Assembly: GCA_038874135.1 (NCBI GenBank)
Contig: JAVZCZ010000001.1
Location: 736,001-800,000, forward strand
Origin: Candidatus Woesearchaeota archaeon
GTDB lineage: Archaea; Nanobdellota; Nanobdellia; Woesearchaeales; 0-14-0-80-44-23
DNA: 64,000 nucleotides
Direction of reading: 5' to 3'
A program made the position numbers and the translations under genes. Position 1 is the first letter of the stretch, and every line of letters starts with the position of its first letter. This document shows, in pieces, positions 21,320 through 44,405 of this stretch. Below the pieces are notes generated by a model that was not told where the DNA came from, made no database searches, and worked only from the letters and a program-made list of their open reading frames with translations.

Positions 21320-24300
21320 AAATCCTACCTTCAGGATACTGGAACGGGACAGGCAGCTGGAAAGGAGAAGACAGCAGCTGTACATCCTATTAGGCATCTT
21401 AGGAGTTTTACTAGCAGTTGGTGTTATACTTCTGATAAGAATGTTCATAGGATACGCAGTTCTGGAAAGCAGGGCTGGCACAATAACACAACTTAATATA
21501 CAGCTCAGATACTCAACACACATATGGGCTGGATTTTACGGATTGGCATTCCGCGTTCCCGGATACACTGAGCAGCAGTCTGCAGTTGCAGTCGGCGGCA
21601 CAGTCTTCTTGCAGCACTTAGTATTTGACTGCTTAAAAACTACAGACGGCAACATTCCTGAGGTATATGCCAGTACTTCAAGAAACATTGACTGGAATTC
21701 ACTCCAGCCAGCAACTCCAGACTTGATTGACAGCTACCTACAAGTAGATCCTTCAGATATAACCTCTGCTTCAAACACATTTACAGAAACAATGTCAATA
21801 CTCTTAGGAGACAGAGAAATCACAAATATTGCTGCAACGCACACCAAAAAGTTCGGAGTTCCGGACAGCACGGACTTTGATATAGGCTTCTTAAAAGATT
21901 CGTTGGGAAATCTCGTATTTGTAACCCATGTAACTCCAACTTATACCAAAGGATTTAACAACCAAACTATAAACTACCAAATGCTCCTTCCAGTACAAGC
22001 AGGAACAGCTCCAGTATACTACTTCTTCTCAGACCCATATGACGAGTGCCAAGCAGGGCTTGAAGCTCTCAAAAATGCTACCATATTCGGAAGAGCCATA
22101 GACAATGCAACAGGCCTTCCACTTGAAAATGTTACAGTTAATCTTCATACTGCTACAGTTCTTACCAACTCTACAGGAGACTATTACATAGCAATATTTA
22201 ACGGCACCTACACCCTAGTAGCTTTCAAGCCGGGATATTACACCTTTGTTGCAACAAACATCACTCTCCCAGCTGACAATCTGTCTACACCTCAATCTGA
22301 AAATATTGTCGAATTTAATATATCCCTCATTCCCAACCCTGGAAACCCAACTGGACTCGGAAACCTAACTGGCACTGTAACTGATAAAGACTTCGGAATA
22401 CCCCTCTATAATGTAACAGTGTATGTAAACGGCAGAATCGCTAAGACAAACATTACAGGCCAATACCTACTTGAACTGCCAGCAGGAAATCATTCTCTTA
22501 TAGCAATGAAGGAAAACTACAGAACATACTACACTCCAAATGTAACTATACTGCCTGGAAACACCACTGAATTTAATTTCAGTATGGAATATGCAGAGCC
22601 AGAAATAAAAGAAACTCCTGGATATCCGCTAAATACCTTCGTTTCCAACCTACTCAAACAGGCAGTGCAGAGGCCTCAAATAATACTCACTCATAAGATT
22701 GATACAAAAGAGATATTTGAAACATTAAAAGTTGGCTCATATGTCCAGCGCTCATTCAATATAACGAGTTACAGGCCTGCCGAGTCCAAAGTTGAGTTTG
22801 AAGTCATAGGAAGTGCTGCACAGCTGGTAAAGGTTGACAAGAGCAGCTCAATAATACCTCCAAGGGGTGCAGAAAACTTCACCCTTACAATTCTAGCCAA
22901 TGTGCCTCCAGGCATATATACCGGAACATTCCTAATCAAAGGAGACCTTGAAGACAGAATCCCGATAAAGATAGTTGTTTATGAGAAGGATAGACTTCCA
23001 ATAGAGGCTCTTCTCCTAGAAGTAGTGCCAATAAAAAAGATAATCAGCCCAGGAGAACTATTTGAATATAAGGTCAGCATGACAAACCTGCTGAGGGACA
23101 CCCCATACAACATCACCCTTTCATACAATATCACCTCGCGCTCTTCAAATCTTACTATTCCCGTTGAAGAAGAGACGAGACTCTTGGAAACTCAGCTTTC
23201 CTACCTTAAGTATTACAAGCTTCCCAAAGACCTGCCAGAAGGAGAATACTTCCTTGAAACTAGAGCGGAATTCTTAGAACTATCAACAAACACAAAATCG
23301 CTATTCATAGTTAAGAAGCCAATTTACATGTATGCATTATTCGGAATACTTCCCCTCTGGCAGCTTTTCATAATAATAGTTTTCACCTCCCTCATGACCT
23401 TCGCAGGATTAATGTATCGGAAGCGTGTTTTGGCTTCTCGTCGTTATGGTGTGAGTGTGGATTTGCGTAGTTTTCCTTCTTCTGGTAGGCTTGTGCGTTT
23501 GGGTAAGTTGGCGGAGTATGGGCGTGATTTTTGGTTTGATTTGGATGGTTTGACTACGCATTGTATTGTGGCTGGTGCTACTGGTGGTGGTAAGACTGTT
23601 GCTGCTCAGGTTTTGGTGGAGGAGGCTTTGAAGGCTGGTGTGGCTGTGGTTGTTTTTGATCCTACGGCTCAGTGGAGTGGTTTTTTGAGGCCTTGTTCTG
23701 ATAAGGGTATGTTGTCTTTGTATTCGGGTTTTGGGTTGCGTCGTTCTGATGCTCGGGGTTTTCCGGGTAATGTGAGGCAGGTGTTGGATGCTCGTGAGGT
23801 TTTTGATGTTAGGCGTTTTATGCGTCCTGGTGAGATTGAGATTTTGAGTTTGAATAGGTTGAGGCCTGAGGAGATTGATGTTTTTGTGGCTAATACTGTT
23901 AGGAGCGTGTTTGATGCGGGTTTGGATGAGTGTCGTGAGTTGAGGTTGTTGTTGGTTTATGATGAGGTGCATAGGTTGTTGCCGCGTTTTGGCGGTTCTG
24001 GTGAGGGTTTTGTGCAGATTGAGAGGGCTTGTCGTGAGTTTAGGAAGTGGGGTGTTGGTGTTGTTTTGATTAGTCAGGTTTTGTCTGATTTTGTTGGTGA
24101 GATTAAGGCTAATATTAATACTGAGGTTCAGATGAGGACTCGTGATGAGGGCGATTTGGAGCGTATTCGTGTTAAGTATGGTGATGCTTATCTTAGGGGT
24201 CTTGTGAGGGCTAGTGTGGGTACTGGTATGTTTGAGAATCCCGGTTATAATGGTGGTCGTCCTTTTTTTGTTAGTTTTAGGCCTTTGTTGCATAGTGTGG

Positions 24301-24854
24301 TTCGTTTGTCTGATGCCGAGTTGGGTGAGTATAATAGGTTGAATGGGGTGTTGGATGATTTGGAGTTTTGGATTGGCGAGTTGGAGCGTTTGGGTGTGGA
24401 CGTGTTTGATTTGAGGTTGGAGTTGAAGTTGGCTTGGGATAAGTTGAGGGTTGGGGGGTTTGGGATGGTGGATGTTTATGTTGAGGGTTTGAGGCCTCGC
24501 GTGTTGGGCGAGTTTGAGCGTTTGGGGAGGCCTGTTCCTAAGCGTGAGGTTAAACGCCTTTCAGATGAGGAGCTGCAGAAGGAAAAGGAGATTGCTATGC
24601 AGGAACATGAGAAAGCAAAACAGCAGGAAGCAGGACAAACTTCACAAAATTCAGATTCCAAGACAGAAACTTCCCAAATTCAAAACACAAAAGTTGAAGA
24701 GCAGCCCAGCCAAAATGAAAAGGCCGAGAACCAAGAGAATGCAAAATCCTCAAATGAAAATAAAATTAAAAGAGTAAGGGAGGGTAAAAAGCAGAGGATG
24801 AGGAAATCAGCAAGTTCGGAAAAAAATAATAAAAAAAGAGGTGCTAAAAAATGA
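21312..24854 (+). CDS. Membrane-anchored HerA/FtsK-superfamily ATPase with N-terminal family-A (WxGxYG) domain, two carboxypeptidase-regulatory-like domains and Ig-like domains
   Basis: N-terminal TM; AGTITQL..WAGFYG..YQMLLP..YYFF domain; DNATGLPLENVTV and DKDFGIPLYNVTV repeats; second TM; ATPase domain identical to that of 18401-20782. Confidence 0.85.
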   Translation: MNKNPTFRILERDRQLERRRQQLYILLGILGVLLAVGVILLIRMFIGYAVLESRAGTITQLNIQLRYSTHIWAGFYGLAFRVPGYTEQQSAVAVGGTVFLQHLVFDCLKTTDGNIPEVYASTSRNIDWNSLQPATPDLIDSYLQVDPSDITSASNTFTETMSILLGDREITNIAATHTKKFGVPDSTDFDIGFLKDSLGNLVFVTHVTPTYTKGFNNQTINYQMLLPVQAGTAPVYYFFSDPYDECQAGLEALKNATIFGRAIDNATGLPLENVTVNLHTATVLTNSTGDYYIAIFNGTYTLVAFKPGYYTFVATNITLPADNLSTPQSENIVEFNISLIPNPGNPTGLGNLTGTVTDKDFGIPLYNVTVYVNGRIAKTNITGQYLLELPAGNHSLIAMKENYRTYYTPNVTILPGNTTEFNFSMEYAEPEIKETPGYPLNTFVSNLLKQAVQRPQIILTHKIDTKEIFETLKVGSYVQRSFNITSYRPAESKVEFEVIGSAAQLVKVDKSSSIIPPRGAENFTLTILANVPPGIYTGTFLIKGDLEDRIPIKIVVYEKDRLPIEALLLEVVPIKKIISPGELFEYKVSMTNLLRDTPYNITLSYNITSRSSNLTIPVEEETRLLETQLSYLKYYKLPKDLPEGEYFLETRAEFLELSTNTKSLFIVKKPIYMYALFGILPLWQLFIIIVFTSLMTFAGLMYRKRVLASRRYGVSVDLRSFPSSGRLVRLGKLAEYGRDFWFDLDGLTTHCIVAGATGGGKTVAAQVLVEEALKAGVAVVVFDPTAQWSGFLRPCSDKGMLSLYSGFGLRRSDARGFPGNVRQVLDAREVFDVRRFMRPGEIEILSLNRLRPEEIDVFVANTVRSVFDAGLDECRELRLLLVYDEVHRLLPRFGGSGEGFVQIERACREFRKWGVGVVLISQVLSDFVGEIKANINTEVQMRTRDEGDLERIRVKYGDAYLRGLVRASVGTGMFENPGYNGGRPFFVSFRPLLHSVVRLSDAELGEYNRLNGVLDDLEFWIGELERLGVDVFDLRLELKLAWDKLRVGGFGMVDVYVEGLRPRVLGEFERLGRPVPKREVKRLSDEELQKEKEIAMQEHEKAKQQEAGQTSQNSDSKTETSQIQNTKVEEQPSQNEKAENQENAKSSNENKIKRVREGKKQRMRKSASSEKNNKKRGAKK
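23419..24574 (+). repeat. 1156 bp direct repeat, copy 2
   Basis: Matches 19239-20394. Confidence 0.95.
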
Positions 24855-25675
24855 AGTCAAAAAAATCAGTTAAGTATAGAGCGAGAGTTCACAATAAGGC
24901 TAACTCAAGCAAGAAAGATTTGAGAAAAAAGAAGGTTCGCATTGAGAGAAAAAATAGCACTAAAACAATTAGTAAAGAAACATCACCTAAAAAATCCAAA
25001 GCTTACTTAAAAAAGCGATTTGGCAAGATTGATAACAGAGTTATTAAAAATAAAAATAATAAAGTAAAACCAGGAGCTTTAAAGCACAGAAAAAAAGAGA
25101 AGAAGCAGAATGTTCAAAAAAGAAGAAAAGCAATGCAAAAAAAGCCAGCGCCTGAAAACGCAGCCGCAGCAACCAACCAAGTACAGACAAATACGACTTC
25201 AACAGCTCAGCAGGCAAATTCTCAAATTGAAACACATTCAGATGTGGAAGCGCTTCAAAAAGAATACTCAGATATCAACAGCTATCTGGTTCAGCGAAGA
25301 AAAGCGGGAGTTGACACCTTCATACAGGAACTGAAACTTTTTTCAATACCGTCAAAAATTCAGCTTTTAAAGGCAGAATACTCAAAAGATTATGCTGACA
25401 AGATTAGAGTTCAACTTAATGAGATTAGAGAAGAGTTAGAAAAAGCAGAACCTCAACCGACCCCCCTTGACCTTCCTAAAGTTCAGCCGAACCAGCCGAA
25501 TCCATTCTCAGAGCAACAGCTCACAAGTCAGAATAATAATCATCCCTTAACGCAGGATGCAGAAAACTATTCAAAAGAACTAGCTGAGAAGCGCCTTTCA
25601 AATAAAATAAAAAATTCTCTGAGAAATGCTTCCAAAAAAGTTATGTCCATATTCAAAAAAGGAGGTGGAAATTAG
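24851..25675 (+). CDS. Hypothetical cytoplasmic protein, Lys-rich N-terminus plus helical domain
   Basis: 274 aa, ATG overlaps upstream stop; no TM or signal peptide. Confidence 0.7.
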   Translation: MKSKKSVKYRARVHNKANSSKKDLRKKKVRIERKNSTKTISKETSPKKSKAYLKKRFGKIDNRVIKNKNNKVKPGALKHRKKEKKQNVQKRRKAMQKKPAPENAAAATNQVQTNTTSTAQQANSQIETHSDVEALQKEYSDINSYLVQRRKAGVDTFIQELKLFSIPSKIQLLKAEYSKDYADKIRVQLNEIREELEKAEPQPTPLDLPKVQPNQPNPFSEQQLTSQNNNHPLTQDAENYSKELAEKRLSNKIKNSLRNASKKVMSIFKKGGGN

Positions 25676-26833
25676 ATGTTCAACCTTTTCAAACGGAAAA
25701 ACTCTGAAGAAGTTCCCAATCAACAATCAGCTAACGAAGATCTGACAGCTCCAGCACAAACCCAGCAAACTGCTACTACGCAAGGACAGGAAAACCTCGC
25801 TGCAGAATTAATGAAGATTAAGGCAGAAGTGGAAGCATTTTCAGATGTAAGAAAAGCCACAAATGAGAAACTTACAAGACTAAGCGAGCAGATTGGAGAG
25901 CTAAGAGCAATGATTGCAGACAGAGACAAGGTGATGAATCAGATAGAGGTTAAAGCTACAAAGGCAGCAGATCTCGTAGCCACAGTTAAGCCTGAAGAGC
26001 AGATGGTAGAAATAAAGCGTCAGGATGCAAAACTTGAAGCGTTTAAAGCATCTCTGGAGAGCAATGAACTTTTGATGAAGAGAGTTTTAGACGAACTTAA
26101 AGAGATGAGAACAAAGATAGCTTCCTTCCGCGGAATTGAGGAACTAATCAACCTTAACAATGAAGTAAAATCTGAAATAATTGAAATAAAAAAGGTTGAA
26201 GCAAACATACAAAAGCATGCAGACAAGGTAGAAACGATATTTGCAGAGGTTCAGAAAAGATTCGTTGACTTTACAAAAATTGATGATAGGATAGCATCCA
26301 ACACGAAGCAAATAGCAGAGCTATCAAAGAACTTGGACGGAGTGAAGGCAACTGCCTCGGCAGCAGCCACAAAAAAGAGTGTAGATGAACTAACTTCCAA
26401 ATTCTTAGAAATGAAAGACCAACTCTCAGAACTGGTTTCAACAATAAACAAGCGCCTCTCCTTAGTGGAGAAGAACAATTCTGCAGCATTTGAAGCTTTT
26501 GAAAAAGCGATAATGCACAAGTTTAAACTTTCAAAAGAGGAAGTAGCTGTATTTAAAGAGCAAGTACAGCAGAATCAGCAAGCCCAGCCAACTCAGCAAA
26601 TATCCCAGCCGCAGGATGTCTCTCAAAAGAGCAATACTCAAGAGCAAAATCTTCAGACCAGTGAAGCACCCGAAGCTCTACCACAGCCGCAAGCCTCTCA
26701 GCAGGTTCAGCAGCCGCAGAGTGAGCCAAATGAGCAAGACTCAAAAAAGCCTGACAGCAGCATTCAGAAAGAGATAAGAGAAGCAGCCAAGTTTGCTAAA
26801 AGGATAAAAAGCAAAAAAAGAAAGAAGAAATGA
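25676..26833 (+). CDS. Long coiled-coil cytoplasmic protein
   Basis: Heptad-rich (EKLTRLSEQIGELRAMIADRD...), Gln-rich tail, GGAGGTG RBS, translationally coupled. Confidence 0.75.
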   Translation: MFNLFKRKNSEEVPNQQSANEDLTAPAQTQQTATTQGQENLAAELMKIKAEVEAFSDVRKATNEKLTRLSEQIGELRAMIADRDKVMNQIEVKATKAADLVATVKPEEQMVEIKRQDAKLEAFKASLESNELLMKRVLDELKEMRTKIASFRGIEELINLNNEVKSEIIEIKKVEANIQKHADKVETIFAEVQKRFVDFTKIDDRIASNTKQIAELSKNLDGVKATASAAATKKSVDELTSKFLEMKDQLSELVSTINKRLSLVEKNNSAAFEAFEKAIMHKFKLSKEEVAVFKEQVQQNQQAQPTQQISQPQDVSQKSNTQEQNLQTSEAPEALPQPQASQQVQQPQSEPNEQDSKKPDSSIQKEIREAAKFAKRIKSKKRKKK

Positions 26834-32800: not shown

Positions 32801-33870
32801 CTCTTGACGGAAAATTGAAACAATCTTATATTGAATTATATAACAACACACCTTATGCAGAAGCTACCTATAATTTATCTGCAGGAACTCATTACTGGAA
32901 TGTTAGCTGCTGGGACTATGTAAACCATACGGGCTTTAGCGAAACCTGGAACTTTACAGTTCCACTGCCAGACATCACAGTTTCAGCAATTGAATTCATT
33001 TATAATACCACAAACCCAGAAGAAGGCAAACAGCTGATGATAAATGCAACTGTAGAAAATTTAGGGAAGTCCAATGCAAACAATTTCTTAGTGCAATTCT
33101 TTGACGGAAATCCCGAAGATGGGGGAATTCAGATTGGAAACAATATAACAATGAGTTTACAGCCGCTATCTGCTTCATACGCAATTATGAATTGGACTGC
33201 CTCCTTGGGAACTCACAATATATTCGTGCTAGTAGATCCTCCAATAGCAACCAATGGAACGGTACAAGAAGAAAATGAGAGTAACAACATAGCTAATAAA
33301 ACAATACTCATACAAAGTTGGCATTTCATCTACGGTAACCTTAGCGGAGAATTAGGACTTAGCAGCCAGCTCTATTCGCTGTTATTCCTCTGGAATGTTA
33401 GCGACGCCAACAATAGTAATATATTTGCAGTTGACTCTGACAGCAATATTGATTGGGGAAGTCTAAAACCATTAGGATTGGATGTGAATAATCAAGCATC
33501 TCCCTACGACTTTTCAGTTCTAGACCAAAAACTAGGTATGTCAAATTATGAAGATTCAATAAACTCAACTTACACCGAGGGAGAATCTCCCAAAATGACA
33601 GAAACATTTACAATATACGGAAAGCAGATAGAAAATGTTCCGGTAGCATATTCAATTAACAGCTCCAATTTTAAAACAGGAATACTGTGGGACACTTCCG
33701 ATGGGAACACATACTTTAACGGAACTCAGGATGTAGTTTTTGTAACTAAAACCAATATGAACGCACAGGGCAGTTTTGATCAGACAGACTACGAAATGCG
33801 CATCCCATCTAACTTGAAAAATTATATTGGCTCAAATCCAACAGTAGCATTATACTTAGAGATAAGATGA
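26830..33870 (+). CDS. Giant secreted Ig-repeat surface protein/adhesin (2346 aa) with CARDB-like and C-terminal family-A domain
   Basis: Signal peptide; more than 10 units of ~95 aa with P.N..F..D..NCSL.I.G..W.V.C.D..GN; PDITV..N.G..VDP..EENESNN; very many NxS/T sequons; no C-terminal TM. Confidence 0.85.
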   Translation: MNSSKFFKLIILGFIIVVGLLSQSKADSIQAVYGNTQLILTDKPQYTLGESVKINILIPTQLLSGMNVEIDTPASRYQLLDSNLSEVYFTPQQEGNYTIKISSAAGNLISSTSFLVLRKSEVEIPSSDSTSPKLSAKNWKGNYQKILRQEYLPANKKLSIEFSELSIQKIDFYNVSNPNGELKIEDVPLSYVENFSGRAARSFAIDPTLLEFTYAEIYFTATANELWKCREYDFSTRSCAGRYVKIMDTIPGRQYILHLTKEDPLYTEVWNNITCTCQNTGPNNGWAYCEVFCPVNIPIPTDALDGFIQILGYNVTITTSYPAGGYITPNSGMHYGFFDRDQLKSNGNESLIGYVAYDGPGTTTQLIYNTSMAPSGAYAFNRANCPTWTSGYCTWYVFLNSTAKSSKVKRPVTVNITLNSINWTWNYTTPAPSNITINLTSPADNTALGFRNVNFSYIPISSSPVSNCSLFINITGSWNAVATSYSIQNNSVNSINYTLSNDGEYLWNIRCYAGDISSFALYNRTLIVDTAPPSVTLLSPNNNSFSNTSIISFIYNVSDNFNIANCSLILDNVLVATSYAVTKYVPQNITYALSNGVHNWSITCFDFAGNFNISESRIINISAVPTIWDRRWYETSTSDYTSTANISLANLRDSTENSISVSVPVSTSYTLVDAISPYIGSNGAFVPKGTNVSFSGEFSTSPNAKGVISWFLYQTEGSTKNLLCNYGNGGSLGAPISSTTTASCTIQNDTLMLPTNRLQLIIIYYNNFKNLVSVTHYWDGTRLSFVEFSNFTTLGTLSVDLSYPDTDITVGQNELFNMSCTVNCSGGSCLNTLVYAQYNTSSTAFTNIGSSGNLILNTGETNPHSLGNINQSYTTTFLIKGNLASTNNIRCVAVSNYSNATGQIIRRVVVGDTTPPTVSLGNPANFSWLKSKTVTIYYTPSDNSGITNCSIYLNDILNYTLNSVPNGIEQNFTFHNLSDGLYNWTVACTDNSALTTRAAEKWFYIDTQNPSVELHQPENFIVLGSSLVLFNFTAYDEMAFNLSCNLTADNIIRISGINSLNSTPTIVNYTLSMGQHYWNVTCRDLAGNINTSETRTFNITNTPPEVTLISPPNNYWDRIGNITFIFNATDTGLISNCSLIINGQLNQTKNSTFLTNGINNFTILNMESGVYLWEVNCTDEGNLSTIAGPFTLNVDKSVPSVQLVFPSNYYNSSASSIVLQFITTDAHSANLSCNLTIDGILNSTDIIAQNNSLVSQPITFYDGIHNWSVSCSDLAGNLNSTNTWYFNISEKPSVSLSSPAPNAWTNGNVTFTFTASDNDGLYNCSLLINGAVYQTKNSSQLTNGGQNNFTVTNLLEGINQQWTVICFDLGIYKNFYSPSTRIFHVDKTPPAITLNYPADSAQIKQKNVSFNFSASDNFASNLYCNLSINGQINTSEIAVQSGSSVIVNVSGFPNGLYYWNVSCRDYAYNVNWSETNSFNVSVPPEVFLEYPLEGQWDNSENVTFYYLVTSNAELQSCSLIINGQLNQTDNSPVSSAYNNFTIFLMPEGYYTWMVNCTDSYWLTGSSNLRNLTIDRQAPWIVLNSPSNSSIVDSNYVTFNWTAFDMMADNISCDLYVDDYLRESEIYSKNGTPTTRTYIYSDGTYYWNVSCRDPAYNINWSQTYNFTVEAPPNVTLISPSNYNWSTAYSITFAYLPQDPIGIRQCTLYFDGSPNQTDYDIEANQLNYFTINPISEGVHTWSVNCTDSDWNTYMPPAFTLYIDRTPPTIVIESPVNLSVFSIPDVTFNFTAIDMLSDNISCKITINGNLNRTITVQNDTPYNFTIVKMSDNIYYWNVSCSDLAGNANASNTMQFTVSAIPSIIPISPANLSWSEVSQITFYFNATDNDGLSNCTLLINGVANQTKSSGLINGGINNITSTLTEGEYDWSIACTDSGIFYNLNLSAPQKIFVDLNSPLIVLYAPLSGSITENNSPVLNFTASDTMYPIMYCNITLDGKLKQSYIELYNNTPYAEATYNLSAGTHYWNVSCWDYVNHTGFSETWNFTVPLPDITVSAIEFIYNTTNPEEGKQLMINATVENLGKSNANNFLVQFFDGNPEDGGIQIGNNITMSLQPLSASYAIMNWTASLGTHNIFVLVDPPIATNGTVQEENESNNIANKTILIQSWHFIYGNLSGELGLSSQLYSLLFLWNVSDANNSNIFAVDSDSNIDWGSLKPLGLDVNNQASPYDFSVLDQKLGMSNYEDSINSTYTEGESPKMTETFTIYGKQIENVPVAYSINSSNFKTGILWDTSDGNTYFNGTQDVVFVTKTNMNAQGSFDQTDYEMRIPSNLKNYIGSNPTVALYLEIR

Positions 33871-36800
33871 AACGCAGCATAACTTTTGGAATAATTTTTC
33901 TACTTTTAATAGCATTATCTCTAAAAATTTCCAGTGCGAGCTGTCCGGAAATAATACTTTCATCCAACACCACTATAAAAGATGTAGATATAAAAATAAA
34001 AGTTTCAGGGCAGACACAAGAGTCAGAATTAGTGATAAGAACGCCTTCAGGTCCGTATCGTCTTTTAGGAGATATTCCTTCCCTTACAAGCTTTACTCCA
34101 AAAGATGTAGGTAACTACTCTGTTGAAGTTTGGCAGGACAAAGTGCTGTGTGACATAAAAAATTTTACCGCACTACCTCACAATAACTCGACACTATTCC
34201 TTCCGCCAATACTTTCCACAGATAAAAAAGAATACCACTTAGGTGAAGCTGTTAGAATTTCACTCTCACCAGAATATTACGGTTACTCAATTGAAGGTTT
34301 AAATTTAAAACTGTTGACAGGACAGCAATCCTACTCTCTCTTAGGGGAAATATCTGAGGATATAGAATTCCGACCTGTTTTTGAGGGTAACTATACAATT
34401 CTCTTATTAGACTCCATTGGAAATACTCTTGCTTCTGAAAGCTTTTCCGTCTACGCTTTGAATAGTTACTTTGTTAATAACTTATCTATTAAAAAACGAT
34501 TTTCGGACAAATTTGAATACAACATCAGCACTAATTCAGAAGACATGATTGTTGAATTCTCAAACTCCTTCATTAAAAGACTAAACCTAAAGAAACTATC
34601 TTCAAGTAATCTGGCGATAGTTAGGATTTCAGAGTTACTGCCGGAAGAGAGGAGCCGTCTGAATATTCCTACAATTGGAGGTGAAATTAAAGAATCTTTT
34701 GAATTAGATCCTTCCGCCCTAAACTTTTCAGAAGGTGAACTAACAATTGTCCCTTCAGGAAATGAGCTGTGGAAGTGCACTGATTGGAATTATGATGCTC
34801 AGTATTGTGTCGGAAGTTGGATCAAGCAGCAGAATCTTGTTCCCGGTGTTGAAAATGTAATTAAGTTTAACCTTTCCGATCCAGGATATGCTATTGTTGC
34901 AACTGCTAACATAACTTCAATAGCAGCAGCAACCCTCTCTGAAAACTCTTTTGTAGTAGCATATTGCGATGATACAAATGATAGAACTGCTTTCAAGGTT
35001 TTCTGGGCTAATGGGAGTGTAAGAACTAATGAGGTGATAGTTGATTCAACTACTGGAAATTGTGGTTACACCTCAGTTTCTGTTTCAGCACTTACCAACA
35101 ACTCTTTTGTTATCGGATGGATTGATACTGCCAGCAGTTATGCCAGCTTCGCTGTTTATGATGCCTCTGGAAATGTTATTACTCCAAGGGTGGATGTGGA
35201 TACTACTGCTGGTACTTCCCGTTCTGTGAGTGTGTCTGCTTTTAATAGTTCTGCTTTTGTTTTTGGTTGGTATGATCAGGCTTCTGCTTATGCTTCTTTT
35301 AGGACTTTTAGTTCTTCTGGTGTGGCTATTTCTTCTGTTGTTAATGTGGATACTACTGCTGGTACTTGTAATGCTGTTTCTGTTTCTGCGGTTAATTCTT
35401 CTGCTTTTGTTTTTGGCTGGTATGATCAGGCTTCTTCTGATATGACTTTTCGTACTTATACTTCTTCTGGCGTTGCGATTTCTGCCGTGACTGATGTGAA
35501 TACTAAGGTGGGTACTGGTTCTTTTTCTGTTTCTGTTGCTGCTTATAATTCTAGTGCTTTTGTTATTGTTTGGTATGATCAGAGGCTGGGTTATGTTAGT
35601 TTTCGTCAGTATTCTGTTGCTGGTGTTCAGATTGGGAGTCAGGTTAATCCGGATACTGCTGTTGGGACTACTGCTTCTGGTGTTTTTGTTTCTTCTGTTG
35701 GTGTGAATTCTAGTGTTTTTGCTGTGGGTTGGAATGATTTGACTACTGATGTTGTTAGTTCTGTGAGGACTTATAGTGGTGCTGGTGCTGCTGTTTCTTC
35801 TGAGGTGGTTGTGCAGGCTAATGCTTTGAAGTATAATGCTCTTGCCGGCTACTACCCTGCTACAGGCATAGGTTTCTGCAATGGAAACTTTGTAGCAATA
35901 ATTGTTAATACTTCTTCGCAGGCATTTTTTAAAGCATACATGCCTAATGGAAGCGAATGGGACGGAAACTGTCCTGATGTTATACCGCCTCAAGTTGTTC
36001 TGAATAGTCCTCAGCAAGCCGCTGTCTTCTATAGTGATACTGTGGATTTTAATTTTACAGTAACCGACAATGTAGATTTAGTAATTCCAAACTGTACCCT
36101 TTGGATAAACACTTCATCAACATTCTCTCCAAACATAACAATTTACAATATAACCTCTAATAAGATGAACAACATAACTCTATCTCAAATTCCAGACAAC
36201 AAATACATTTGGAATGTCAGGTGTTATGACAATGCAGGCAACTCAGCATTTGCTTCTTCAAATTTTTCATTATTTATCAACAAGAATCCACCTCAAATCT
36301 TGAACCCCCTCCTGAATGAAAGTACAGTAAATCAGAGCCATTCAGTAAAGTTTAATGTCTCAATAACCGATTCATATGGTATAGACTCTGCATATATAAC
36401 TATGATGTACCCAAACGGTTCATCAAATAATTATTATCTTAATAGAAGTGGGAATGAATTTTACTTCATAATTAATAATACAATCCAGATAGGAACATAT
36501 TCTGTGATATATGTGTGGGCTAATGATACCCTCGGACAAAACTCTTCTCTAACCCTTTCAGATCTCCAGTTTAATGTCACGCCTTCACCACCTGCTCAAT
36601 TCAACCTTTTAAGTCCCCCGAATGCAACAGAGTCAACAAACCTGCGACCAAACTTGACTTGGGAGACATCTTACGATGAGACATTCCTTAATTATACTAT
36701 TCAGATTTCTCAGGATGAAAACTTCGCAACAGTACTCTTTACATATTATAATCCGGGTGTTTATAATACTTCAAGAGTGCTGGATTATGCCCTAGAAGCG

Positions 36801-39800
36801 AATAAGAAATATTACTGGCAAGTTATTGCATACGACACCTTTGGCAATTATAAATATTCAACAAATTACTTCTCATACATAACTGACACTTTGGCACCTT
36901 CCATCGTGCTAAATATGCCGGGAAATCTTTCATTCATAAATTCTACACAAGTCAACTTTACATTTACACCTTCAGATGCTAACACGATATCAAGATGTAC
37001 TCTCTACCTAAATGTCACAGGAGCATTCCTCCCTAACACAAGTATAACTCAAGTTGTTAAAGACACTCCAAATTTAATACAAGCTGAAATTAAAGATGAG
37101 GGCGCCCACTTGTGGAATATCCTGTGTAATGATAGCGCAGGAAATTCTGCGTTTGCTCCTCAGAACTTCACCTTTATTTCAGATCTTAACCCGCCCTCAA
37201 TACAACTATTAAGTCCTCCCAACGGCAGTACATACAACATTTCCAATTTTGTAAATTTCACTATAAATGCATCTGATAGGATATCCGCAGTATACCGCTG
37301 CACACTCATAATAAATGGACAGCCCGTTCTTACTTCTTATTCTGTGCAGGACGGAGTGCCATACACATTTCAGTATTTCTTGCTGAATGGAAATTACTCC
37401 TGGCAGGCAGAATGTTACGACTTAAACGGTCATTCAAACCTTTCTTATTCCTACAACATTTCAGTTTTAGTTATTGATTCAGTACCTCCAATCGTAACCT
37501 TAACTAGCCCCGCACAGGACCAATACCTTTCCAGTAAAACAGTACTATTCAATTATACTCCGCAAGACGCTACTGGAATAAAGAACTGCACCCTATTTAT
37601 TGATGGCAATGAAAACGAAACTGACTTTTCTGTTAGGAACTTGGAACCAAACTACTTCTTATTAGAATACTTAGAGGACGGGGTTCATAACTGGACTGTG
37701 CTCTGCTTTGACAATAGCAGCCAGCAGAACAGCTACGCACCCACCCCTGTAAGGTTCTCAATAGATACAACTCCGCCATCAGTAATTCTTATCTCTCCAG
37801 AAGATGGAGTTCTTACTAATAATTCTCTAGTCACCTTTGTATACGCACCATCAGATGCAAATCTTGAAAATTGCTCCCTCTACACTAATTCTTCTAGCGA
37901 GTGGATGATGGAATCAACAGACTTCTACCCAATTAATAATCAGCAGAATGTTTTTCAAAAATCAGTTGCGGATGGAGTTCTCGTTTGGAATGTTGTTTGT
38001 TATGATAAGGGCGGGCTCTCCAGCTTTGCTGACTTTAACCGAACATTGAATGTTGATACAACTCCGCCGCGATACGCCAATATAACTCTGATCCCGACAA
38101 GCCCAACTGAATATTCACCTTATGGGGAGTATTACTTTAATATAACATGGATTGATGATTTTAATTTGTCATCTGTATATTTTGAGAGCAACTTTTCAGG
38201 AACCTTTGAGAATGAGAGTCCCAACCACTTTGAAAACATTTACTATGTTCACAAGACAGGTCTTAACTCAGGAACATACCAGATTAGGTGGTACGCTACT
38301 GATTCGGCAAAAAATCAGAACGAAACCCCGGCAATTCAGTATGATATAACTAAAGCAGAGCCTAACCTTACTTTAAAAATAAACAATTATTCTTATAATT
38401 TGACTGTTGAGGAAGATAGCATAGTTAATATCTCAGCAGAGCTCTTAGAGCCACCCGGAGCATACCTCTCTATTTATATTAACAATAATCTCATTACTAA
38501 CGGAACTTCTCCTATTTATACTACTTACAACTTTACAGAGCCTGGATCTTATAATGTTACTGCGAGCTTTGAAGGAAGCCAAAACTACCTTTCAGCATTC
38601 AGAACAATAATTGTAAATGTCTCAGACACTACACCCCCAATTATAGTTCCCATCTTCCCGCAGAATAACTCATTCATAGGGGAAAATCACATTGTATTTT
38701 CTTACAATGTAACTGACAGCAGCCAAATTGCCAACTGTTCTTTATTCATAAATAGAACATTAAACCAGAGCAATACCAGCATACAGAATGGAATAAACTA
38801 CTTTGAAGTTGACTTTCAAGATGGCAACTACTCCTGGCACCTCTCCTGTTATGACGAGTTTTCAAACTATGCTGAAAGCCCGGAGATATACTTCACTTCA
38901 ATAAGGTCAGATAAAATAATTGCTTCAGCACATCCTCAACAGCCGCAGTACCAAAAGGGTGAAACGGCAATACTTATAGGAAATACTACGAGCATCTTCG
39001 GAACACCATTAGATACAAATATTTATGCTAATGTAATAAGAGGCAATACTACGATAGAATGGTGGAACACTTCATTCAAATACAGAAGGCCTATATTTAT
39101 AAATAACTCAATGAACGCTTCAACATACTTGCAGGCGCTAATCAACATTTCAAACCTTAGCGCTTCAATTTCTAACTGTTCTGAACTCAGAATTGTAATG
39201 AACAACTCTTTTGAGCACACCCTAATCCCCTCAGAAGTACTCTTAGAAGAGGGAAATGCTTCGTGCCTGCTAAGATTTAATGCGAATGCTTCTGCACTCG
39301 CCACGAATGAGAACAACTACTATGTATATTACGGAAACTCAGGAGCAGGAGCCCAGCAGCAGCTTCCAGAACTTGCAGGCATATCAGTACAGCGTAAGTC
39401 TGTTGTGGGAACTACAACTTCAATCACTGATACGATGAGTGAGGTGAATACTTCAAGAGCGTTCCTGCTTTTCAGCGCCAATGTCGCCAGCTCAACTCCT
39501 GCAGTTTGGGAAATAACGGGAAGAATATTATCCTCAACGCAGGTAGTGTTTGAAAGATACTCGGGAACCACATCTGCAAATATATCCTGGCAGGTTATAG
39601 AAGGCTCAGAGATTAATGTGCAGAGGGGAACCGCATCATTTGGAGCTACACAATCAAATACTACAATACTTATAGATAGTGTTAATCTAAACGAGTCTTT
39701 CATAATAATAACCGGAAGGACCAGCAGCACCACAGCAGGGAATGCAAACATGGGCTTCTTTAGGGCAATGTTCCTTAACTCTACTGCAATTTATATTGAA

Positions 39801-41705
39801 AGGGCTACAACTGGAAGCACTGCTGTTGCAGAATGGCAGGTAGTTTCGTGGAGTGGTGCGAGAGTGCAGAGTGGAAACATCTCTTTCATAACAGCTTCGC
39901 AGAGCGTCCCCATAGAAGAGGTTAATCTTTCCAGGAGCATGCTGATATTCAGCACTGCTGTAACTGGCAACACCAGGATAGGAGCTAACATGATTTTTGG
40001 CAACTTTACCAATTCCACAACAGCATACTTCTCAAGAACGAATGCTGCAGGAACAGCATATGTTTCCTGGTTTGCAGTTGAGCTTCCCCAATACTACTCA
40101 GTACAAGCCGGAACAGTTTCAATCACAGCAGATACCAATGTTCAAATATACCCCGTGCGCACTGAGAAGACATTTCATCTGCACTCAGCTTCAGCAGTAG
40201 GAGCAACCAGCACTACCTACTCTGATGCCCTAATAAGAGCCGAGCTAACAAATAGCTCAAATCTTATGCTGGATAAGGTGTCTGGCACAAATACCAACTA
40301 TGTTGCCTGGTTTGTAGTAGAAGAAAAATATCTTTCAGCTAATTCGGGAATGGAAGAAGCTTTAATGGCATACAACTACAACTCCACATTGACAGGGCTT
40401 TACACTCTAAGTTGGGTTTCCGGAAAGAGCCCGGTGGGCAACTACACCTTTGTATACTCTGCAACAAAAACTAATTACTCATCTGCAAGGGCATACTCCA
40501 CATTTGAGATAATTCCAGACACAACTCCGCCCAATGTTACGCTTGTAAGCCCACTTCAACTTGAAAAGAGGGGCGTCGGAAATATAATCTTTTCCTACAT
40601 ACCTTATGACTTGAACCTTCTAAACTGCACACTCTACCTTGGAAAGGACGGAACTTTTTCTCCGAACATTACGAGCACGAGTCCAATAAATAATGCAGTA
40701 AACAATCTTTCAGTATACTTAGACATCGGATTATACACTTGGAATGTGCTTTGTAGGGACAGTGAAGGAAACTCTGCATTTGCTCTGCAGAACAGGACAC
40801 TTAACATAACAGGCCCAGACCTATACCCTGTTGCTGTTTGGTTTAGCAACACGCCCAGGATTGAGACCGTTAACACAACCATCTTTGTTAACATTTCTAA
40901 TAAGGGGCTTTCTGATTGTACTAAAAACTTCACTGTTGAGTTCAGGAGAAGTGGGCTGCTCATAGGCAATCTGAGTGTGCAGGGGCTGCTGATTGGCGAA
41001 GTTAAAAGCTTGAACTCTTCATTCCTGTTAGGTCCCGGCATTAATAATTTAAGTATTAGCATAGATCCTGATAACAGGATTAACGAGTCGGACGAGTCAA
41101 ACAACAATGCTTATGAGGTTATTGCTGTTGAGTTTTATCAGTACTATTACGGAAATCTTAGCTTTTTACAGGTTTTGAGCAAGTCCTCAAACGAGTCTGT
41201 ATTCACTTGGGAAAATTCAAATCCTGAAGATGGGGTTATTTTAGTTGCTGATATTGATTCAAAATTTGAGATTGGAAACTTAAGAGCCCTGACTCGGAAT
41301 GCAAATGGGGATCCAGTTATAAATGATCTTTCAGAATTGGATGAGGCTTTTAATTCTTCAAATCTTAACGATTCTATTAAGAATGTGTGGGGAAACGGCA
41401 CTGACATTCCAATAATGACTGCCAACTTTACGATAGGACAGTTTAATATTTCTAACGTTCCGGTAGCATATTCCAGAAATTCCACTTCTTCAATTACGGG
41501 AATACTCTGGGACTCTGCAGATGATTTAAGCCACAACCTTCAGTATGACAGCTCTGATAGGGAAGATATAGTTCTAATCACAAAGATTCACCCGTTAGCA
41601 GACTGTTCTTTTGGTAGCTGCAATTATGAGATAAGAATTCCAGCAGCTCTACGCTCTTACAAGCCTAACACCGACCTCGTAGTTTTTTACACCATGCTAA
41701 ACTGA
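33867..41705 (+). CDS. Giant secreted Ig-repeat surface protein/adhesin (2612 aa) with propeller-like repeats, DUF2341-like segment, lectin-like repeats, CARDB-like and C-terminal family-A domain
   Basis: Signal peptide; 50-aa SVSVSA.NSSAFV.GWYD repeats; WWNTSFKYRRPI..YYVYYGN; V(N/D)..R(A/S)F..W.V(I/V)E repeats; IDPDNRINESDESNN. Confidence 0.85.
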   Translation: MKRSITFGIIFLLLIALSLKISSASCPEIILSSNTTIKDVDIKIKVSGQTQESELVIRTPSGPYRLLGDIPSLTSFTPKDVGNYSVEVWQDKVLCDIKNFTALPHNNSTLFLPPILSTDKKEYHLGEAVRISLSPEYYGYSIEGLNLKLLTGQQSYSLLGEISEDIEFRPVFEGNYTILLLDSIGNTLASESFSVYALNSYFVNNLSIKKRFSDKFEYNISTNSEDMIVEFSNSFIKRLNLKKLSSSNLAIVRISELLPEERSRLNIPTIGGEIKESFELDPSALNFSEGELTIVPSGNELWKCTDWNYDAQYCVGSWIKQQNLVPGVENVIKFNLSDPGYAIVATANITSIAAATLSENSFVVAYCDDTNDRTAFKVFWANGSVRTNEVIVDSTTGNCGYTSVSVSALTNNSFVIGWIDTASSYASFAVYDASGNVITPRVDVDTTAGTSRSVSVSAFNSSAFVFGWYDQASAYASFRTFSSSGVAISSVVNVDTTAGTCNAVSVSAVNSSAFVFGWYDQASSDMTFRTYTSSGVAISAVTDVNTKVGTGSFSVSVAAYNSSAFVIVWYDQRLGYVSFRQYSVAGVQIGSQVNPDTAVGTTASGVFVSSVGVNSSVFAVGWNDLTTDVVSSVRTYSGAGAAVSSEVVVQANALKYNALAGYYPATGIGFCNGNFVAIIVNTSSQAFFKAYMPNGSEWDGNCPDVIPPQVVLNSPQQAAVFYSDTVDFNFTVTDNVDLVIPNCTLWINTSSTFSPNITIYNITSNKMNNITLSQIPDNKYIWNVRCYDNAGNSAFASSNFSLFINKNPPQILNPLLNESTVNQSHSVKFNVSITDSYGIDSAYITMMYPNGSSNNYYLNRSGNEFYFIINNTIQIGTYSVIYVWANDTLGQNSSLTLSDLQFNVTPSPPAQFNLLSPPNATESTNLRPNLTWETSYDETFLNYTIQISQDENFATVLFTYYNPGVYNTSRVLDYALEANKKYYWQVIAYDTFGNYKYSTNYFSYITDTLAPSIVLNMPGNLSFINSTQVNFTFTPSDANTISRCTLYLNVTGAFLPNTSITQVVKDTPNLIQAEIKDEGAHLWNILCNDSAGNSAFAPQNFTFISDLNPPSIQLLSPPNGSTYNISNFVNFTINASDRISAVYRCTLIINGQPVLTSYSVQDGVPYTFQYFLLNGNYSWQAECYDLNGHSNLSYSYNISVLVIDSVPPIVTLTSPAQDQYLSSKTVLFNYTPQDATGIKNCTLFIDGNENETDFSVRNLEPNYFLLEYLEDGVHNWTVLCFDNSSQQNSYAPTPVRFSIDTTPPSVILISPEDGVLTNNSLVTFVYAPSDANLENCSLYTNSSSEWMMESTDFYPINNQQNVFQKSVADGVLVWNVVCYDKGGLSSFADFNRTLNVDTTPPRYANITLIPTSPTEYSPYGEYYFNITWIDDFNLSSVYFESNFSGTFENESPNHFENIYYVHKTGLNSGTYQIRWYATDSAKNQNETPAIQYDITKAEPNLTLKINNYSYNLTVEEDSIVNISAELLEPPGAYLSIYINNNLITNGTSPIYTTYNFTEPGSYNVTASFEGSQNYLSAFRTIIVNVSDTTPPIIVPIFPQNNSFIGENHIVFSYNVTDSSQIANCSLFINRTLNQSNTSIQNGINYFEVDFQDGNYSWHLSCYDEFSNYAESPEIYFTSIRSDKIIASAHPQQPQYQKGETAILIGNTTSIFGTPLDTNIYANVIRGNTTIEWWNTSFKYRRPIFINNSMNASTYLQALINISNLSASISNCSELRIVMNNSFEHTLIPSEVLLEEGNASCLLRFNANASALATNENNYYVYYGNSGAGAQQQLPELAGISVQRKSVVGTTTSITDTMSEVNTSRAFLLFSANVASSTPAVWEITGRILSSTQVVFERYSGTTSANISWQVIEGSEINVQRGTASFGATQSNTTILIDSVNLNESFIIITGRTSSTTAGNANMGFFRAMFLNSTAIYIERATTGSTAVAEWQVVSWSGARVQSGNISFITASQSVPIEEVNLSRSMLIFSTAVTGNTRIGANMIFGNFTNSTTAYFSRTNAAGTAYVSWFAVELPQYYSVQAGTVSITADTNVQIYPVRTEKTFHLHSASAVGATSTTYSDALIRAELTNSSNLMLDKVSGTNTNYVAWFVVEEKYLSANSGMEEALMAYNYNSTLTGLYTLSWVSGKSPVGNYTFVYSATKTNYSSARAYSTFEIIPDTTPPNVTLVSPLQLEKRGVGNIIFSYIPYDLNLLNCTLYLGKDGTFSPNITSTSPINNAVNNLSVYLDIGLYTWNVLCRDSEGNSAFALQNRTLNITGPDLYPVAVWFSNTPRIETVNTTIFVNISNKGLSDCTKNFTVEFRRSGLLIGNLSVQGLLIGEVKSLNSSFLLGPGINNLSISIDPDNRINESDESNNNAYEVIAVEFYQYYYGNLSFLQVLSKSSNESVFTWENSNPEDGVILVADIDSKFEIGNLRALTRNANGDPVINDLSELDEAFNSSNLNDSIKNVWGNGTDIPIMTANFTIGQFNISNVPVAYSRNSTSSITGILWDSADDLSHNLQYDSSDREDIVLITKIHPLADCSFGSCNYEIRIPAALRSYKPNTDLVVFYTMLN
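35187..35842 (+). repeat. 656 bp direct repeat, copy 1 (partner 45768-46423), G/T-rich, contains internal ~150 bp units
   Basis: Sense and antisense translations identical over the tract; offset 10581. Confidence 0.95.
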
Positions 41706-41873
41706 GTTCAAATGTTTCTTTACATTTAGTTATCTAGTTTATCTATTAATATATTTAATATAATAAATTAATTATTTTAATTTATTAAGTTAAATATTTT
41801 TTTAATTAATTTATTATTTTAATAACTTAATCAGCAAGTTTTAAAACCCCTATTAACTTATTAAAAATCTAAG

Positions 41874-42368
41874 ATGCCAATTTTAAAGAAAGAGCAACCA
41901 ACTGCATTTCAGGAGCCACCTAAAGAAGTGCCGCCCTTGGCGCGGGAGATAATTGAAAGGAGCAAGATAGCTGGGCATACCGAACTTCCTCAGGAACTTC
42001 CACGAATTGCCGAATTGGTTGAAAGCCCAAAACAGGAATATCCAATACCACAAGAGTCAGCTCACGCTTCCGACGACATAAAAGAAGTGAAAGAACGCCT
42101 TGAACGAATAGAATCCTTGCTCAGAACTGCTGTTCCGGGAAAATATCTCATACTGAGAGATGGGAAAGTACTTAAGAACATTGCCGATTTGAGAAGCGCT
42201 TTAGCCACGATGAGTTCGGAAACATTCAATTTGCATGTCAACTTTGAGAGGAATGACTTTGCAAATTGGGTTAGGAATGTCTTCTTGGAAAAAGAGCTTG
42301 CTGATAAGTTGGATGGAGCCACGAGCAGGGCTCAGATGATTAGAATTTTAAACGAATATTTTGACTGA
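41874..42368 (+). CDS. Small cytoplasmic protein with DUF5752-like domain
   Basis: LRDGKVLKNIADLRSALATMSSETFNLHVNFERNDFANWVRNVF..ELADKL. Confidence 0.7.
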   Translation: MPILKKEQPTAFQEPPKEVPPLAREIIERSKIAGHTELPQELPRIAELVESPKQEYPIPQESAHASDDIKEVKERLERIESLLRTAVPGKYLILRDGKVLKNIADLRSALATMSSETFNLHVNFERNDFANWVRNVFLEKELADKLDGATSRAQMIRILNEYFD

Positions 42369-42543
42369 GAAATTCTTAAGTTTTCTTCTCGTGAAGACAA
42401 AGTTTATTTTTAAACGAAATCCCATTTGAACATTTTTAAGTTATATAATTCTTTATTTTTAATAAAAAAGAATTTTAATCCGTTATAATTAAAAAATAAG
42501 CATTTTAATGGTTTTTTTTATAGATTTTTTATGATTTTTTTTA

Positions 42544-42558
42544 GAAATATTTATATAT
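42544..42558 (+). promoter_or_regulatory. Putative BRE/TATA promoter of the subunit operon
   Basis: GAAATATTTATATAT in an AT-rich intergenic region upstream of 42672. Confidence 0.55.
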
Positions 42559-42595
42559 TAGTATACCTTTTTGTAGTTTAAATTAATAAAAAAGT

Positions 42596-42632
42596 TATTG
42601 GTATACTGCAATGATTAAAAAGTATACCAATA
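42596..42632. promoter_or_regulatory. 12 bp perfect inverted repeat (TATTGGTATACT-N13-AGTATACCAATA), putative operator or 5'UTR hairpin
   Basis: Arms 42596-42607 and 42621-42632; a third GTATAC at 42561 abuts the TATA box. Confidence 0.6.
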
Positions 42633-42671
42633 GCTTATTTACAAGCTTAAAGCAAGCAAGAGGGTGTCAAC

Positions 42672-43442
42672 ATGAAAAGGCGAATCAAAAACTTAGGAGC
42701 AATAGCCTCCTTCCTGGCTTTGTTGCTAGCAGCAGCAGTTCTGGCAGAACCTCAACAGGAGCCAATAGGTCCTGACAGCATAAACCAGTTAGGCTCCAGC
42801 AGGCATACCCCCGCAGCTATTCCATCACGCCCAGCATATGCAGGAAACGTAACTGAACTTTCAGTCTATACTCAGACCACAACACTCGGCTGGCAAGGTT
42901 ACTATGGAAATGTAACGGGTACAATAGTTCTTGATGATGCTAATAATCACACAATGTATGACTGGGCAATTGCACATCCAGAAGGAGAAATCTATGCAGT
43001 AATCCAACCAGTAGCTGATTGGGACCAGGTTTCATGTGCAACTCCAGCTCAGATAAGTACGATAGAAAACAACACTTACAAGTTTAACACTTATCCGAAC
43101 GGAACACTAAAGCCCTCATTAGATGCAGACAGCATTACAAACACATTTGCAGCAAACTTTGATGGAGACTTTTATGTCGGCTCAACACGAATAAATGCTA
43201 CATCCGGGTGTAAGGCAGCATACCTCTATGTCAATGATGCTCCAGACCCGTCAAAGAAGTTTACTGAGACATTGCTATACGACCAGGTGAATGCTAATCT
43301 CATCTTCACAGCAATCCTGGTAGAGAATACGGCAACAGGATTTGACGGGCTGCCTCACGACTTTCAGATGATAGTAGCAGAGAACGGTCACAATGGAGAT
43401 GAAACCACAACAACATACTACTTTTATGTAGAACTGCAATAA
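42672..43442 (+). CDS. Secreted family-A protein (putative filament subunit)
   Basis: Signal peptide; AGNVTEL..WQGYYGNVTG..GEIYA..W..V.C..GFDG..DFQMIV..YYFYVEL. Confidence 0.8.
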   Translation: MKRRIKNLGAIASFLALLLAAAVLAEPQQEPIGPDSINQLGSSRHTPAAIPSRPAYAGNVTELSVYTQTTTLGWQGYYGNVTGTIVLDDANNHTMYDWAIAHPEGEIYAVIQPVADWDQVSCATPAQISTIENNTYKFNTYPNGTLKPSLDADSITNTFAANFDGDFYVGSTRINATSGCKAAYLYVNDAPDPSKKFTETLLYDQVNANLIFTAILVENTATGFDGLPHDFQMIVAENGHNGDETTTTYYFYVELQ

Positions 43443-43512
43443 GGGAAAGCCATACTTGCTTTCTCTTATTAATTTTCACCTCCAGGCGAGGCGAGCAAGC
43501 GAGTGATGAAAA

Positions 43513-43716
43513 ATGGAACGCATCCCAGCACTAAATCCCAGATACACAAAAGTGGTCTGGCAGGAAACCCCTCAATCTGTAAGGGTTATACAGGGTATCT
43601 ATTCTGAAGATGGAGACTTCATAAGAGTTAAAGGCGACTATAAAGAGGTTCTAATCAGAAAGGATAAGGTGATCTCCATAGAGCACAAGCAGGCTGCGCG
43701 GGGTGATATAAAATGA
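43513..43716 (+). CDS. Small beta-rich protein, possibly Sm/LSm-like fold
   Basis: 67 aa, coupled to the next gene; DGDFIRV..EVLIRKDKVISIE pattern. Confidence 0.6.
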   Translation: MERIPALNPRYTKVVWQETPQSVRVIQGIYSEDGDFIRVKGDYKEVLIRKDKVISIEHKQAARGDIK

Positions 43717-44405
43717 AAAAAGTATTCATACTAATCTTGCTGGCAGCATTTCTCGCATTCTCAGTCCGCGCAGTTCCGACTGGCCCTGTTATAATGAGCA
43801 ACAGTACAGACTACGGTCCATCTAATGCTGGCACACTGGTCAGCACTGCTGGAGGAACGATTACAACATATCTATTAAATGCTACTCAGCAGAACCTTAG
43901 ATGGAAGGCATATGTCGGAAATGTGACTGGAAGGTATGTGCTTCAGGACTCTGCCAACTACTCCATCTACGACTGGAGCTTCACAATAAACTCGGGAGAG
44001 GTATATGCCACGAGAGCGTCCTCAGTCAACTGGGCAAATGTGAACTGCGCAAGCCCCGCACAGATAAGTTCAGAAGAATCAGCACTGAATCAGAACTCAG
44101 CCAATCCCGATACCATCTCAAAGACATTCAACACAAAATTTCACAACGCCTTTTCAGTAGGAACTGTCCCAATAAGTGCCAACTCTTGCAACTCCACAGC
44201 AACTAATGTTAACGGAGCCCCTCAAAGCACCTACTTTCAAGAAGTGCTCTTACATGATCAAGCGAGCGCTTTCATATACGCAACTCTTTTGAGCATTGGA
44301 CAGACTGGTTATAATAATCAGCATTTTGATTTTCAAATGATAGTGCCTGAAGACGAGATTACTCCGGGAAACACTCAGTACTACCTGTATGTAGAGCTCA
44401 TATGA
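43713..44405 (+). CDS. Secreted family-A protein (putative filament subunit), paralog of 42672
   Basis: Signal peptide; AGGTITT..WKAYVGNVTG..GEVYA..WANVNC..GYNN..DFQMIV..YYLYVEL. Confidence 0.8.
   Translation: MKKVFILILLAAFLAFSVRAVPTGPVIMSNSTDYGPSNAGTLVSTAGGTITTYLLNATQQNLRWKAYVGNVTGRYVLQDSANYSIYDWSFTINSGEVYATRASSVNWANVNCASPAQISSEESALNQNSANPDTISKTFNTKFHNAFSVGTVPISANSCNSTATNVNGAPQSTYFQEVLLHDQASAFIYATLLSIGQTGYNNQHFDFQMIVPEDEITPGNTQYYLYVELI

Follow-up and report, generated by a model that had tools for sequence, protein, structure and literature searches.

A stretch of 64,000 nucleotides (nt) from the genome of Candidatus Woesearchaeota archaeon (GCA_038874135.1, contig JAVZCZ010000001.1, positions 736,001-800,000, forward strand; hereafter the window) was found to encode five copies of one protein domain, here called family A, in two small secreted proteins (S1 and S2), two giant secreted proteins and one membrane ATPase, the anchor. 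The family A system is real, conserved and undescribed. Its best explanation, to which we give an even chance, is a polar strand-exchange connector or fibre composed of a membrane anchor, small subunits and a giant cap. In such a connector, an N-terminal arm of about 40 residues would dock after secretion on the core of the next subunit, that is, in trans. The base would be a single membrane-tethered copy per genome, a donor only, with its arm site filled by its own insert. S1 and S2 would both accept and donate and lengthen a polar chain, and the giants, with an armless core behind a CARDB domain, would only accept and would cap it. The chain would hold on the cell giants that have no membrane anchor of their own, and large proteins with a full arm would be shaft subunits bearing cargo.

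Homology and distribution of family A

The genome consists of one contig of 909,956 bases and is 99% complete. The region contains two membrane ATPases (18401, 21312), two giants (26830, 33867), S1 (42672), S2 (43713) and two proteins of a second family, family B (44413, 45378), and the named homologues of its proteins belong to Candidatus Woesearchaeota, Nanoarchaeia and Pacearchaeota. All five family-A segments proposed by an initial annotation of the window were located in frame at the positions given for them. Single-sequence comparison in a database of 32 proteins showed uneven matches, with E values of 9e-32 between S1 and S2, 8e-29 between the ends of giants 1 and 2, and 1e-9 between S2 and the domain of the ATPase protein, while the giant ends matched the stand-alone proteins at merely 1e-4 to 0.09. 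Profile comparison settled these scores: the stand-alone family matched the giant-end family at 98.8% (E 1.2e-16, 160 columns) and the ATPase domain at 97.2% (E 3e-11, 169 columns, AGxxT strand included), and the giant-end family matched the ATPase domain at 85.7%. The five segments are thus homologous members of one domain family, as the alignments had been expected to show. The motif series by which they were first recognised is present in all, with its first motif exact just in S1 and the ATPase protein and its closing E replaced by D in the ATPase protein and by M in the second giant.

The ATPase-domain model also superposed on stand-alone clusters with template modelling (TM) scores of 0.64-0.66. 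Clustering at 50% gave 1,686 representatives of the family. It has no name in Pfam or NCBIfam, fold searches with two family-A models returned no named family, and no description was found in the literature. Two further stand-alone copies, overlooked in the initial annotation, are present in the genome outside the cluster. A second S2/S1 pair with both regulator-like genes lies remote from the giants, at 866111-868337 of the genome. One shape-matching ESM Atlas cluster (222 amino acids (aa), 143 members, mostly Microcaldota, TM 0.64) suggests that family A may reach a DPANN lineage with cultured members.

Occurrence was counted in a phylum sample of 151 genomes of relatives of the Woesearchaeota-type host; these are plain counts without a statistical test, and the genomes, being kin, are not independent. 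Family A was present in 46 genomes. Armless cores, as at the giant ends, were found in 35 genomes, every one within these 46, and 34 of the 35 also carried a stand-alone copy. The anchor form occurred in 35 genomes, at about one per genome compared to several stand-alone copies, and the small domain-only proteins are present in 2-9 copies. A stand-alone gene followed downstream within 3 kilobases for 23 of the 36 giant-end genes in the loci examined.

Forms of family A

A total of four forms were distinguished: the stand-alone, anchor and giant-end forms, and a full-arm cargo form. In stand-alone copies a signal peptide is followed by a PxGP segment, then by the AGxxT strand and finally by the core. 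Their hydrophobic leader ends in a conserved Ala (75%) two residues ahead of Pro22 (96%), a pattern that suggests signal peptide cleavage at the leader end with the donor segment directly after it. The anchor form has a hydrophobic helix, the AGxxT strand alone, a core with an insert, and a C-terminal continuation. The PxGP segment, which precedes the AGxxT strand in stand-alone copies and is missing from the anchor, had not been noticed before, nor had the insert of the anchor.

The giant-end form has no arm (best arm score 8.1 bits, below 9.5, the 5th percentile of stand-alone copies) and was C-terminal in all 52 complete proteins, mostly behind a CARDB domain (42/46 by motif). In the window giants this domain matches Pfam PF07705 and continues straight into the first core strand; the AGxxT strand is thus kept in the stand-alone and ATPase forms and absent from the giants, just as first annotated. 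The full-arm cargo form comprises about 19 proteins of 350-2,359 aa with cargo ahead of a complete arm and core, and strand loss is therefore not a rule for large family-A members, contrary to the earlier expectation. Upstream of family A, several full-arm cargo proteins (among P0150, P0210, P0212, P0197 and P0276) match a Nup98-type S59 autopeptidase (best E 3e-7), which suggests possible self-cleavage of the cargo. A possible fifth form is represented by short proteins (about 220 aa) in which the family-A match starts at the AGxxT strand (G069:C4:43553-44116, G081:C4:62732-63298 and G108:C5:35828-36397). In 657 of 658 non-anchor copies the C-terminus lies at most 3 residues from the last motif, which suggests a buried terminus.

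Arm, insert and core surfaces

Structural evidence was taken from the secondary-structure strings and predicted local distance difference test scores (pLDDT) of AlphaFold2 monomer models, without coordinates. In the S2 model (pLDDT 89), residues 24-63 had no secondary structure at pLDDT 76-88, and in the anchor model (mean pLDDT 93.6) the arm had no sheet partners at pLDDT 67-80. The N-terminal strand, whose packing within its own chain would have spoken for a self-complete fold, was thus unpaired in two confident monomers.

Co-evolution in 731 sequences, corrected for subtype, coupled arm and core at P25-V227 (rank 8), D33-S80 (rank 16), S44-Q222 (rank 22) and also G35-Q78. The AGxxT strand gave a single best register among 2,608, parallel along residues 66-76. 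These alignment-based couplings show that the arm binds a core. The donor now proposed, in place of the AGxxT strand alone, is a 40-residue arm of three segments.

The strongest argument for exchange comes from the anchor. Its insert forms two extra beta segments in the model (pLDDT 96-98) and aligns in register with arm residues 40-55 (hhalign 21%, E 0.001); its two strands match arm positions 41-44 and 50-52, both part of the co-evolving contacts. Behind the first core strand, the insert was the best arm match in 12 of 43 anchors (28%) compared to 58 of 656 controls (9%). Judged from the model, the insert would fill the anchor's own arm site, in which case the conserved arm of the anchor must bind another chain.

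The core surfaces of the two end forms differ as well. V227 and L229, at the arm-tip site, are hydrophobic in the armless giants (77% and 100%) and lost in anchors (26% and 15%). Positions 210 and 224 are kept in anchors and lost in giants, which are charged at 210, bulky at 66 and lack Y224, all sites near or weakly coupled to the arm. The tip and base forms have thus lost complementary surfaces, and a polar chain predicts that each end keeps only its neighbour-facing side. Overall, the division into subunit, tip and base first suggested for the five proteins is partly supported by the recurrence of the forms together across genomes, the unpaired arm, the insert of the anchor and these losses, except that the ATPase is not an essential part of the base.

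The anchor ATPase

The ATPase of the anchor is HerA/VirB4/TraG-like with intact Walker motifs. The anchor ectodomain is about 620 aa, and the giants are separate genes without an ATPase. The motor was fused to 25 of 38 complete anchors. A total of 20 of the 46 family-A genomes contained it, and so did 8 others that lack the family. In 7 of these 8 the ATPase terminates a frame of 2,059-9,416 aa, and the four such frames that were read have a membrane helix ahead of the motor and no family A, compared to just 2 of the 20 family-A genomes with the ATPase on a frame of at least 2,000 aa. We infer that family A often stands in for a covalent link from a giant ectodomain to the membrane. With a HerA/VirB4-like motor on the base, the whole would be a functional split version of the one-piece giant-ectodomain/membrane/ATPase proteins of other DPANN archaea, and the connector might in some way be linked to the work of the motor. 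Given the ATPase-free anchors and the presence of the motor in fewer than half of the family-A genomes, the base can be defined without it, and the initial designation of the ATPase fusion as the base was amended.

The two ATPase genes share an identical block of 1,156 nt (19239-20394 and 23419-24574) in which the third codon positions are nearly all T or G (T206, G146, C8, A0). In a relative (G077), the two ATPase copies are likewise identical (1059/1059) and T/G-only, and 80% identical to the window copies. Unrelated giants with the same motor showed no such bias. The biased identical blocks look like the product of biased gene conversion. Exact duplicates with the same bias were also found in giant 2 and open reading frame (ORF) 45378 (656 nt; 35187-35842 and 45768-46423) and inside a Cys-rich ORF at 8000 (207 nt; 8094-8300 and 8652-8858). 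A genome scan placed T/G-biased duplicate blocks in six ORFs, five of them in the window.

Alternative arrangements

Several observations weigh against a polar strand-exchange connector. A total of 13 of the 38 complete anchors lack the ATPase, some anchors lack a second membrane helix, and about 19 large proteins retain the full arm. The likeness between insert and arm is weak, with controls reaching 8.6%, and the position of the insert in the arm site is read from secondary-structure strings. Co-evolution is silent on whether the arm binds its own core or that of a neighbour. The 18-residue arm-core offset and the invariant G48-W64 spacing (593/596) would be equally expected from a self-stacked coil, and the changes in giants at 210, 66 and Y224 fit the loss of a site for their own arm. 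Finally, the anchor has no PxGP segment, so that its acceptor would keep one site empty.

One alternative is a self-complete docking or sorting domain, which we regard as unlikely and yet deserving of serious weight. Here the arm would belong to its own fold, small and giant proteins would attach to an envelope partner, and CARDB would replace the arm in giants. A self-stacked 18-residue coil would be consistent with the geometry of the couplings and with the invariant spacing, and in the S2 monomer model a bridge joins residue 23 to the core. Paired loss in cis would also account for the joint absence of PxGP and its site from anchors, and for that of the arm, I210 and Y224 from giants. A self-closed fold accounts for most of the surface losses too, except for the PxGP site, which giants retain with PxGP itself gone. 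Also against it, the AGxxT strand is unpaired in both models although the alignments hold its signal, the anchor retains a well conserved arm besides its insert, and the small domain-only proteins would carry no cargo to dock.

In a further arrangement, to which we give slightly less credence, arms would be exchanged sideways and the subunits would form a ring, tube, cage or lattice in place of a thin fibre. If several anchors shared an oligomeric ATPase, such an assembly might serve as a conduit, or as a surface layer seating the giants. The three separate contact patches of the arm, the short fixed linker (residues 59-63) that would keep neighbours close, and the several subunit paralogues in the cell are in its favour. 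HerA-type ATPases are ring motors, which also suits such an assembly. Furthermore, cannulae build tubes by donor strands (PMC12518558) and SPEARE-like giants have been proposed as secretion channels (PMC10266531). However, a single base form and a cap form suit a polar chain better, the ATPase was absent from over half of the family-A genomes searched, and the patchy presence of the family (46/151) speaks against a main cell wall.

A two-part clip, in which the anchor arm plugs directly into the armless end of a giant and the small proteins are non-polymerising regulators, spacers or decoys, is very unlikely, since anchors are fewer than the small copies, which show the highest conservation of all forms, fall into paired subtypes and carry both arm and site, even if the anchor and giant ends are complementary and their genes are neighbours here.

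Comparison with known systems

Chaperone-usher pili have a FimH or PapG tip and a PapH terminator. Family A resembles them in that its small secreted subunits carry an N-terminal extension, its large proteins terminate in a copy that lacks the extension, and one form is a candidate for a donor-only base; the tip feature is matched by the giant-type copies, all 52 C-terminal and none with an arm, for which a tip position is proposed here. The family-A arm differs in its three segments and 40 residues, and the cargo in its 2,000-7,500 aa. Neither usher (PF00577) nor PapD-type chaperone (PF00345) was matched in the 99% complete genome, with positive Escherichia coli controls.

In the Pam pili of candidate phyla radiation (CPR) bacteria, PamT is proposed as a tip without a donor strand and PamR as a membrane tether that donates one (PMC13278184). 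The system has two-domain pilins with a linker strand inside them, employs membrane chaperones and no ATPase, and is reported to be confined to CPR bacteria (PMC13278184). A small-genome episymbiont, a strand-less tip with a donating tether and several subunit paralogues are shared likenesses, whereas the stand-alone family-A proteins have one core and an N-terminal arm instead of a two-domain pilin.

Archaeal filaments of the TasA superfamily include AbpA, AbpX, the cannulae CanA/CanX and the Sulfolobus thread, and AbpB has been proposed to donate the first strand (PMC9245690, PMC12518558). They are likewise archaeal, with signal-peptide-processed, chaperone-free subunits bearing N-terminal donor strands, and stand-alone family A matches them in its signal peptide, probably cleaved, with a donor segment directly after it. 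However, the Peptidase_M73/TasA profile (PF12389) had no match in the genome or in 150 family-A members, and C-terminal acceptors on giants and a self-filled anchor are not described there.

SPEARE-like giants of Nanohaloarchaeota combine an Ig-repeat ectodomain, a membrane helix, a VirB4/TraG-like ATPase and a coiled-coil tail, with a second ATPase gene alongside (PMC10266531). By architecture, both window ATPase genes follow the same order of ectodomain, membrane helix and VirB4/TraG/HerA-like ATPase, and the same motor is on the giant frames of family-A-free genomes, among them proteins of 2,059-5,479 aa. A SPEARE giant is one chain, whereas here the giant ectodomain and the motor are encoded apart, and any connection between them would be through family A.

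Gene neighbourhood and other features

Neighbourhoods were counted at 157 loci around stand-alone family-A genes. Recurrent neighbours were a helix-turn-helix protein (112 loci), family B (76) and an ArsR-like regulator (55). Relatives usually have a 170-aa double helix-turn-helix gene before S2-type genes (85 of 89 adjacent cases were S2-type); in the window a 67-aa ORF takes its place. Giant 2, ORF 41874, S1 and S2 lie in a single reading frame with stops between them, probably by chance.

Family B follows the same logic as family A, in that the N-terminal strand is present in small copies and missing from the copy that terminates larger proteins, which reach 4,152 aa. It was found in 23 of the 151 genomes, 19 of which also have family A, and showed no Pfam or PDB sequence match; 19 of its columns resemble the family-A arm (83%). 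A secreted multi-Ig protein with a C-terminal membrane helix (47664-48854), near family A in just 4 loci, is reminiscent of WxL-associated or pilus chaperone proteins and had no family match. Other features are as in Table 1.

Table 1. Features of the family-A region (window positions).
Feature	Position	Strand	Basis or detail
Second membrane ATPase, 793 aa	18401..20782	+	Motor identical to that of the anchor; ectodomain without family A
Anchor protein, 1180 aa	21312..24854	+	Order: N-terminal hydrophobic helix, family-A anchor domain, two carboxypeptidase-regulatory-like domains, more beta domains, membrane helix, HerA/VirB4-like ATPase, charged tail
Anchor N-terminal hydrophobic helix, signal peptide or signal anchor	21378..21446	+	Hydropathy
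Anchor AGxxT strand, residues 55-63, no PxGP before it, unpaired in model	21474..21500	+	95.5% match to stand-alone arm
Anchor family-A core, residues 72-241, runs on into stalk	21525..22034	+	Profile and model comparison
Anchor internal arm-like insert, residues 88-103, two extra beta segments in model	21573..21620	+	
Membrane helix between anchor ectodomain and ATPase	23325..23417	+	
Anchor HerA/VirB4/TraG-like ATPase domain	23472..24551	+	Walker A 23574-23597, Walker B 23949-23966
Coiled-coil protein, conserved beside anchor gene and giants	25676..26833	+	
Giant 1, secreted Ig-repeat protein, 2346 aa	26830..33870	+	No membrane anchor past signal
CARDB domain of giant 1	32968..33315	+	
Armless family-A core, C-terminus of giant 1	33319..33867	+	
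Giant 2, secreted, 2612 aa	33867..41705	+	Ig repeats and repeat block common to ORF 45378
CARDB domain of giant 2	40815..41132	+	
Armless family-A core, C-terminus of giant 2	41136..41702	+	
Conserved cytoplasmic neighbour	41874..42368	+	Relatives in 35/157 loci
S1-subtype stand-alone subunit, 256 aa	42672..43442	+	Signal peptide, arm 42762-42890, core
67-aa ORF overlapping S2 start	43513..43716	+	
S2-subtype stand-alone subunit, 230 aa	43713..44405	+	Signal peptide, arm 43776-43901, core
Family B small secreted protein	44413..45330	+	
Cargo protein, C-terminal family-B unit without N-terminal strand	45378..47636	+	
Conserved membrane-anchored surface protein of cluster	53410..55146	-	41/157 loci

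Significance

Woesearchaeota are abundant, reduced and almost wholly uncultured. The cluster is conserved across many families of the group, offers small expressible subunits and relates these archaea to other DPANN lineages whose giant surface proteins bear an ATPase; the insert of the anchor, the complementarity of the surfaces, the class with a full arm and the optional nature of the ATPase are new here. These archaea live host-dependently, and together with the Ig repeats of the giants this points to a possible role in adhesion. Tentatively, and well short of even odds, the system may represent an unrecognised type of appendage in archaea, in which a VirB4/HerA-like membrane motor is connected to exchangeable giant adhesins through a fibre or tube that assembles itself by strand exchange from a domain with no known relatives. 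About one third of Woesearchaeota-type archaea would then use it to reach and grip their hosts, as a modular counterpart, open to extension, of the SPEARE-like host-contact proteins that are made in one piece. If a strand-exchange connector is true, a new filament family would be named, the retention on the cell of anchorless proteins of 2,000-7,500 aa would be explained, and the N-terminal parts of the giants would be the place to seek host specificity.

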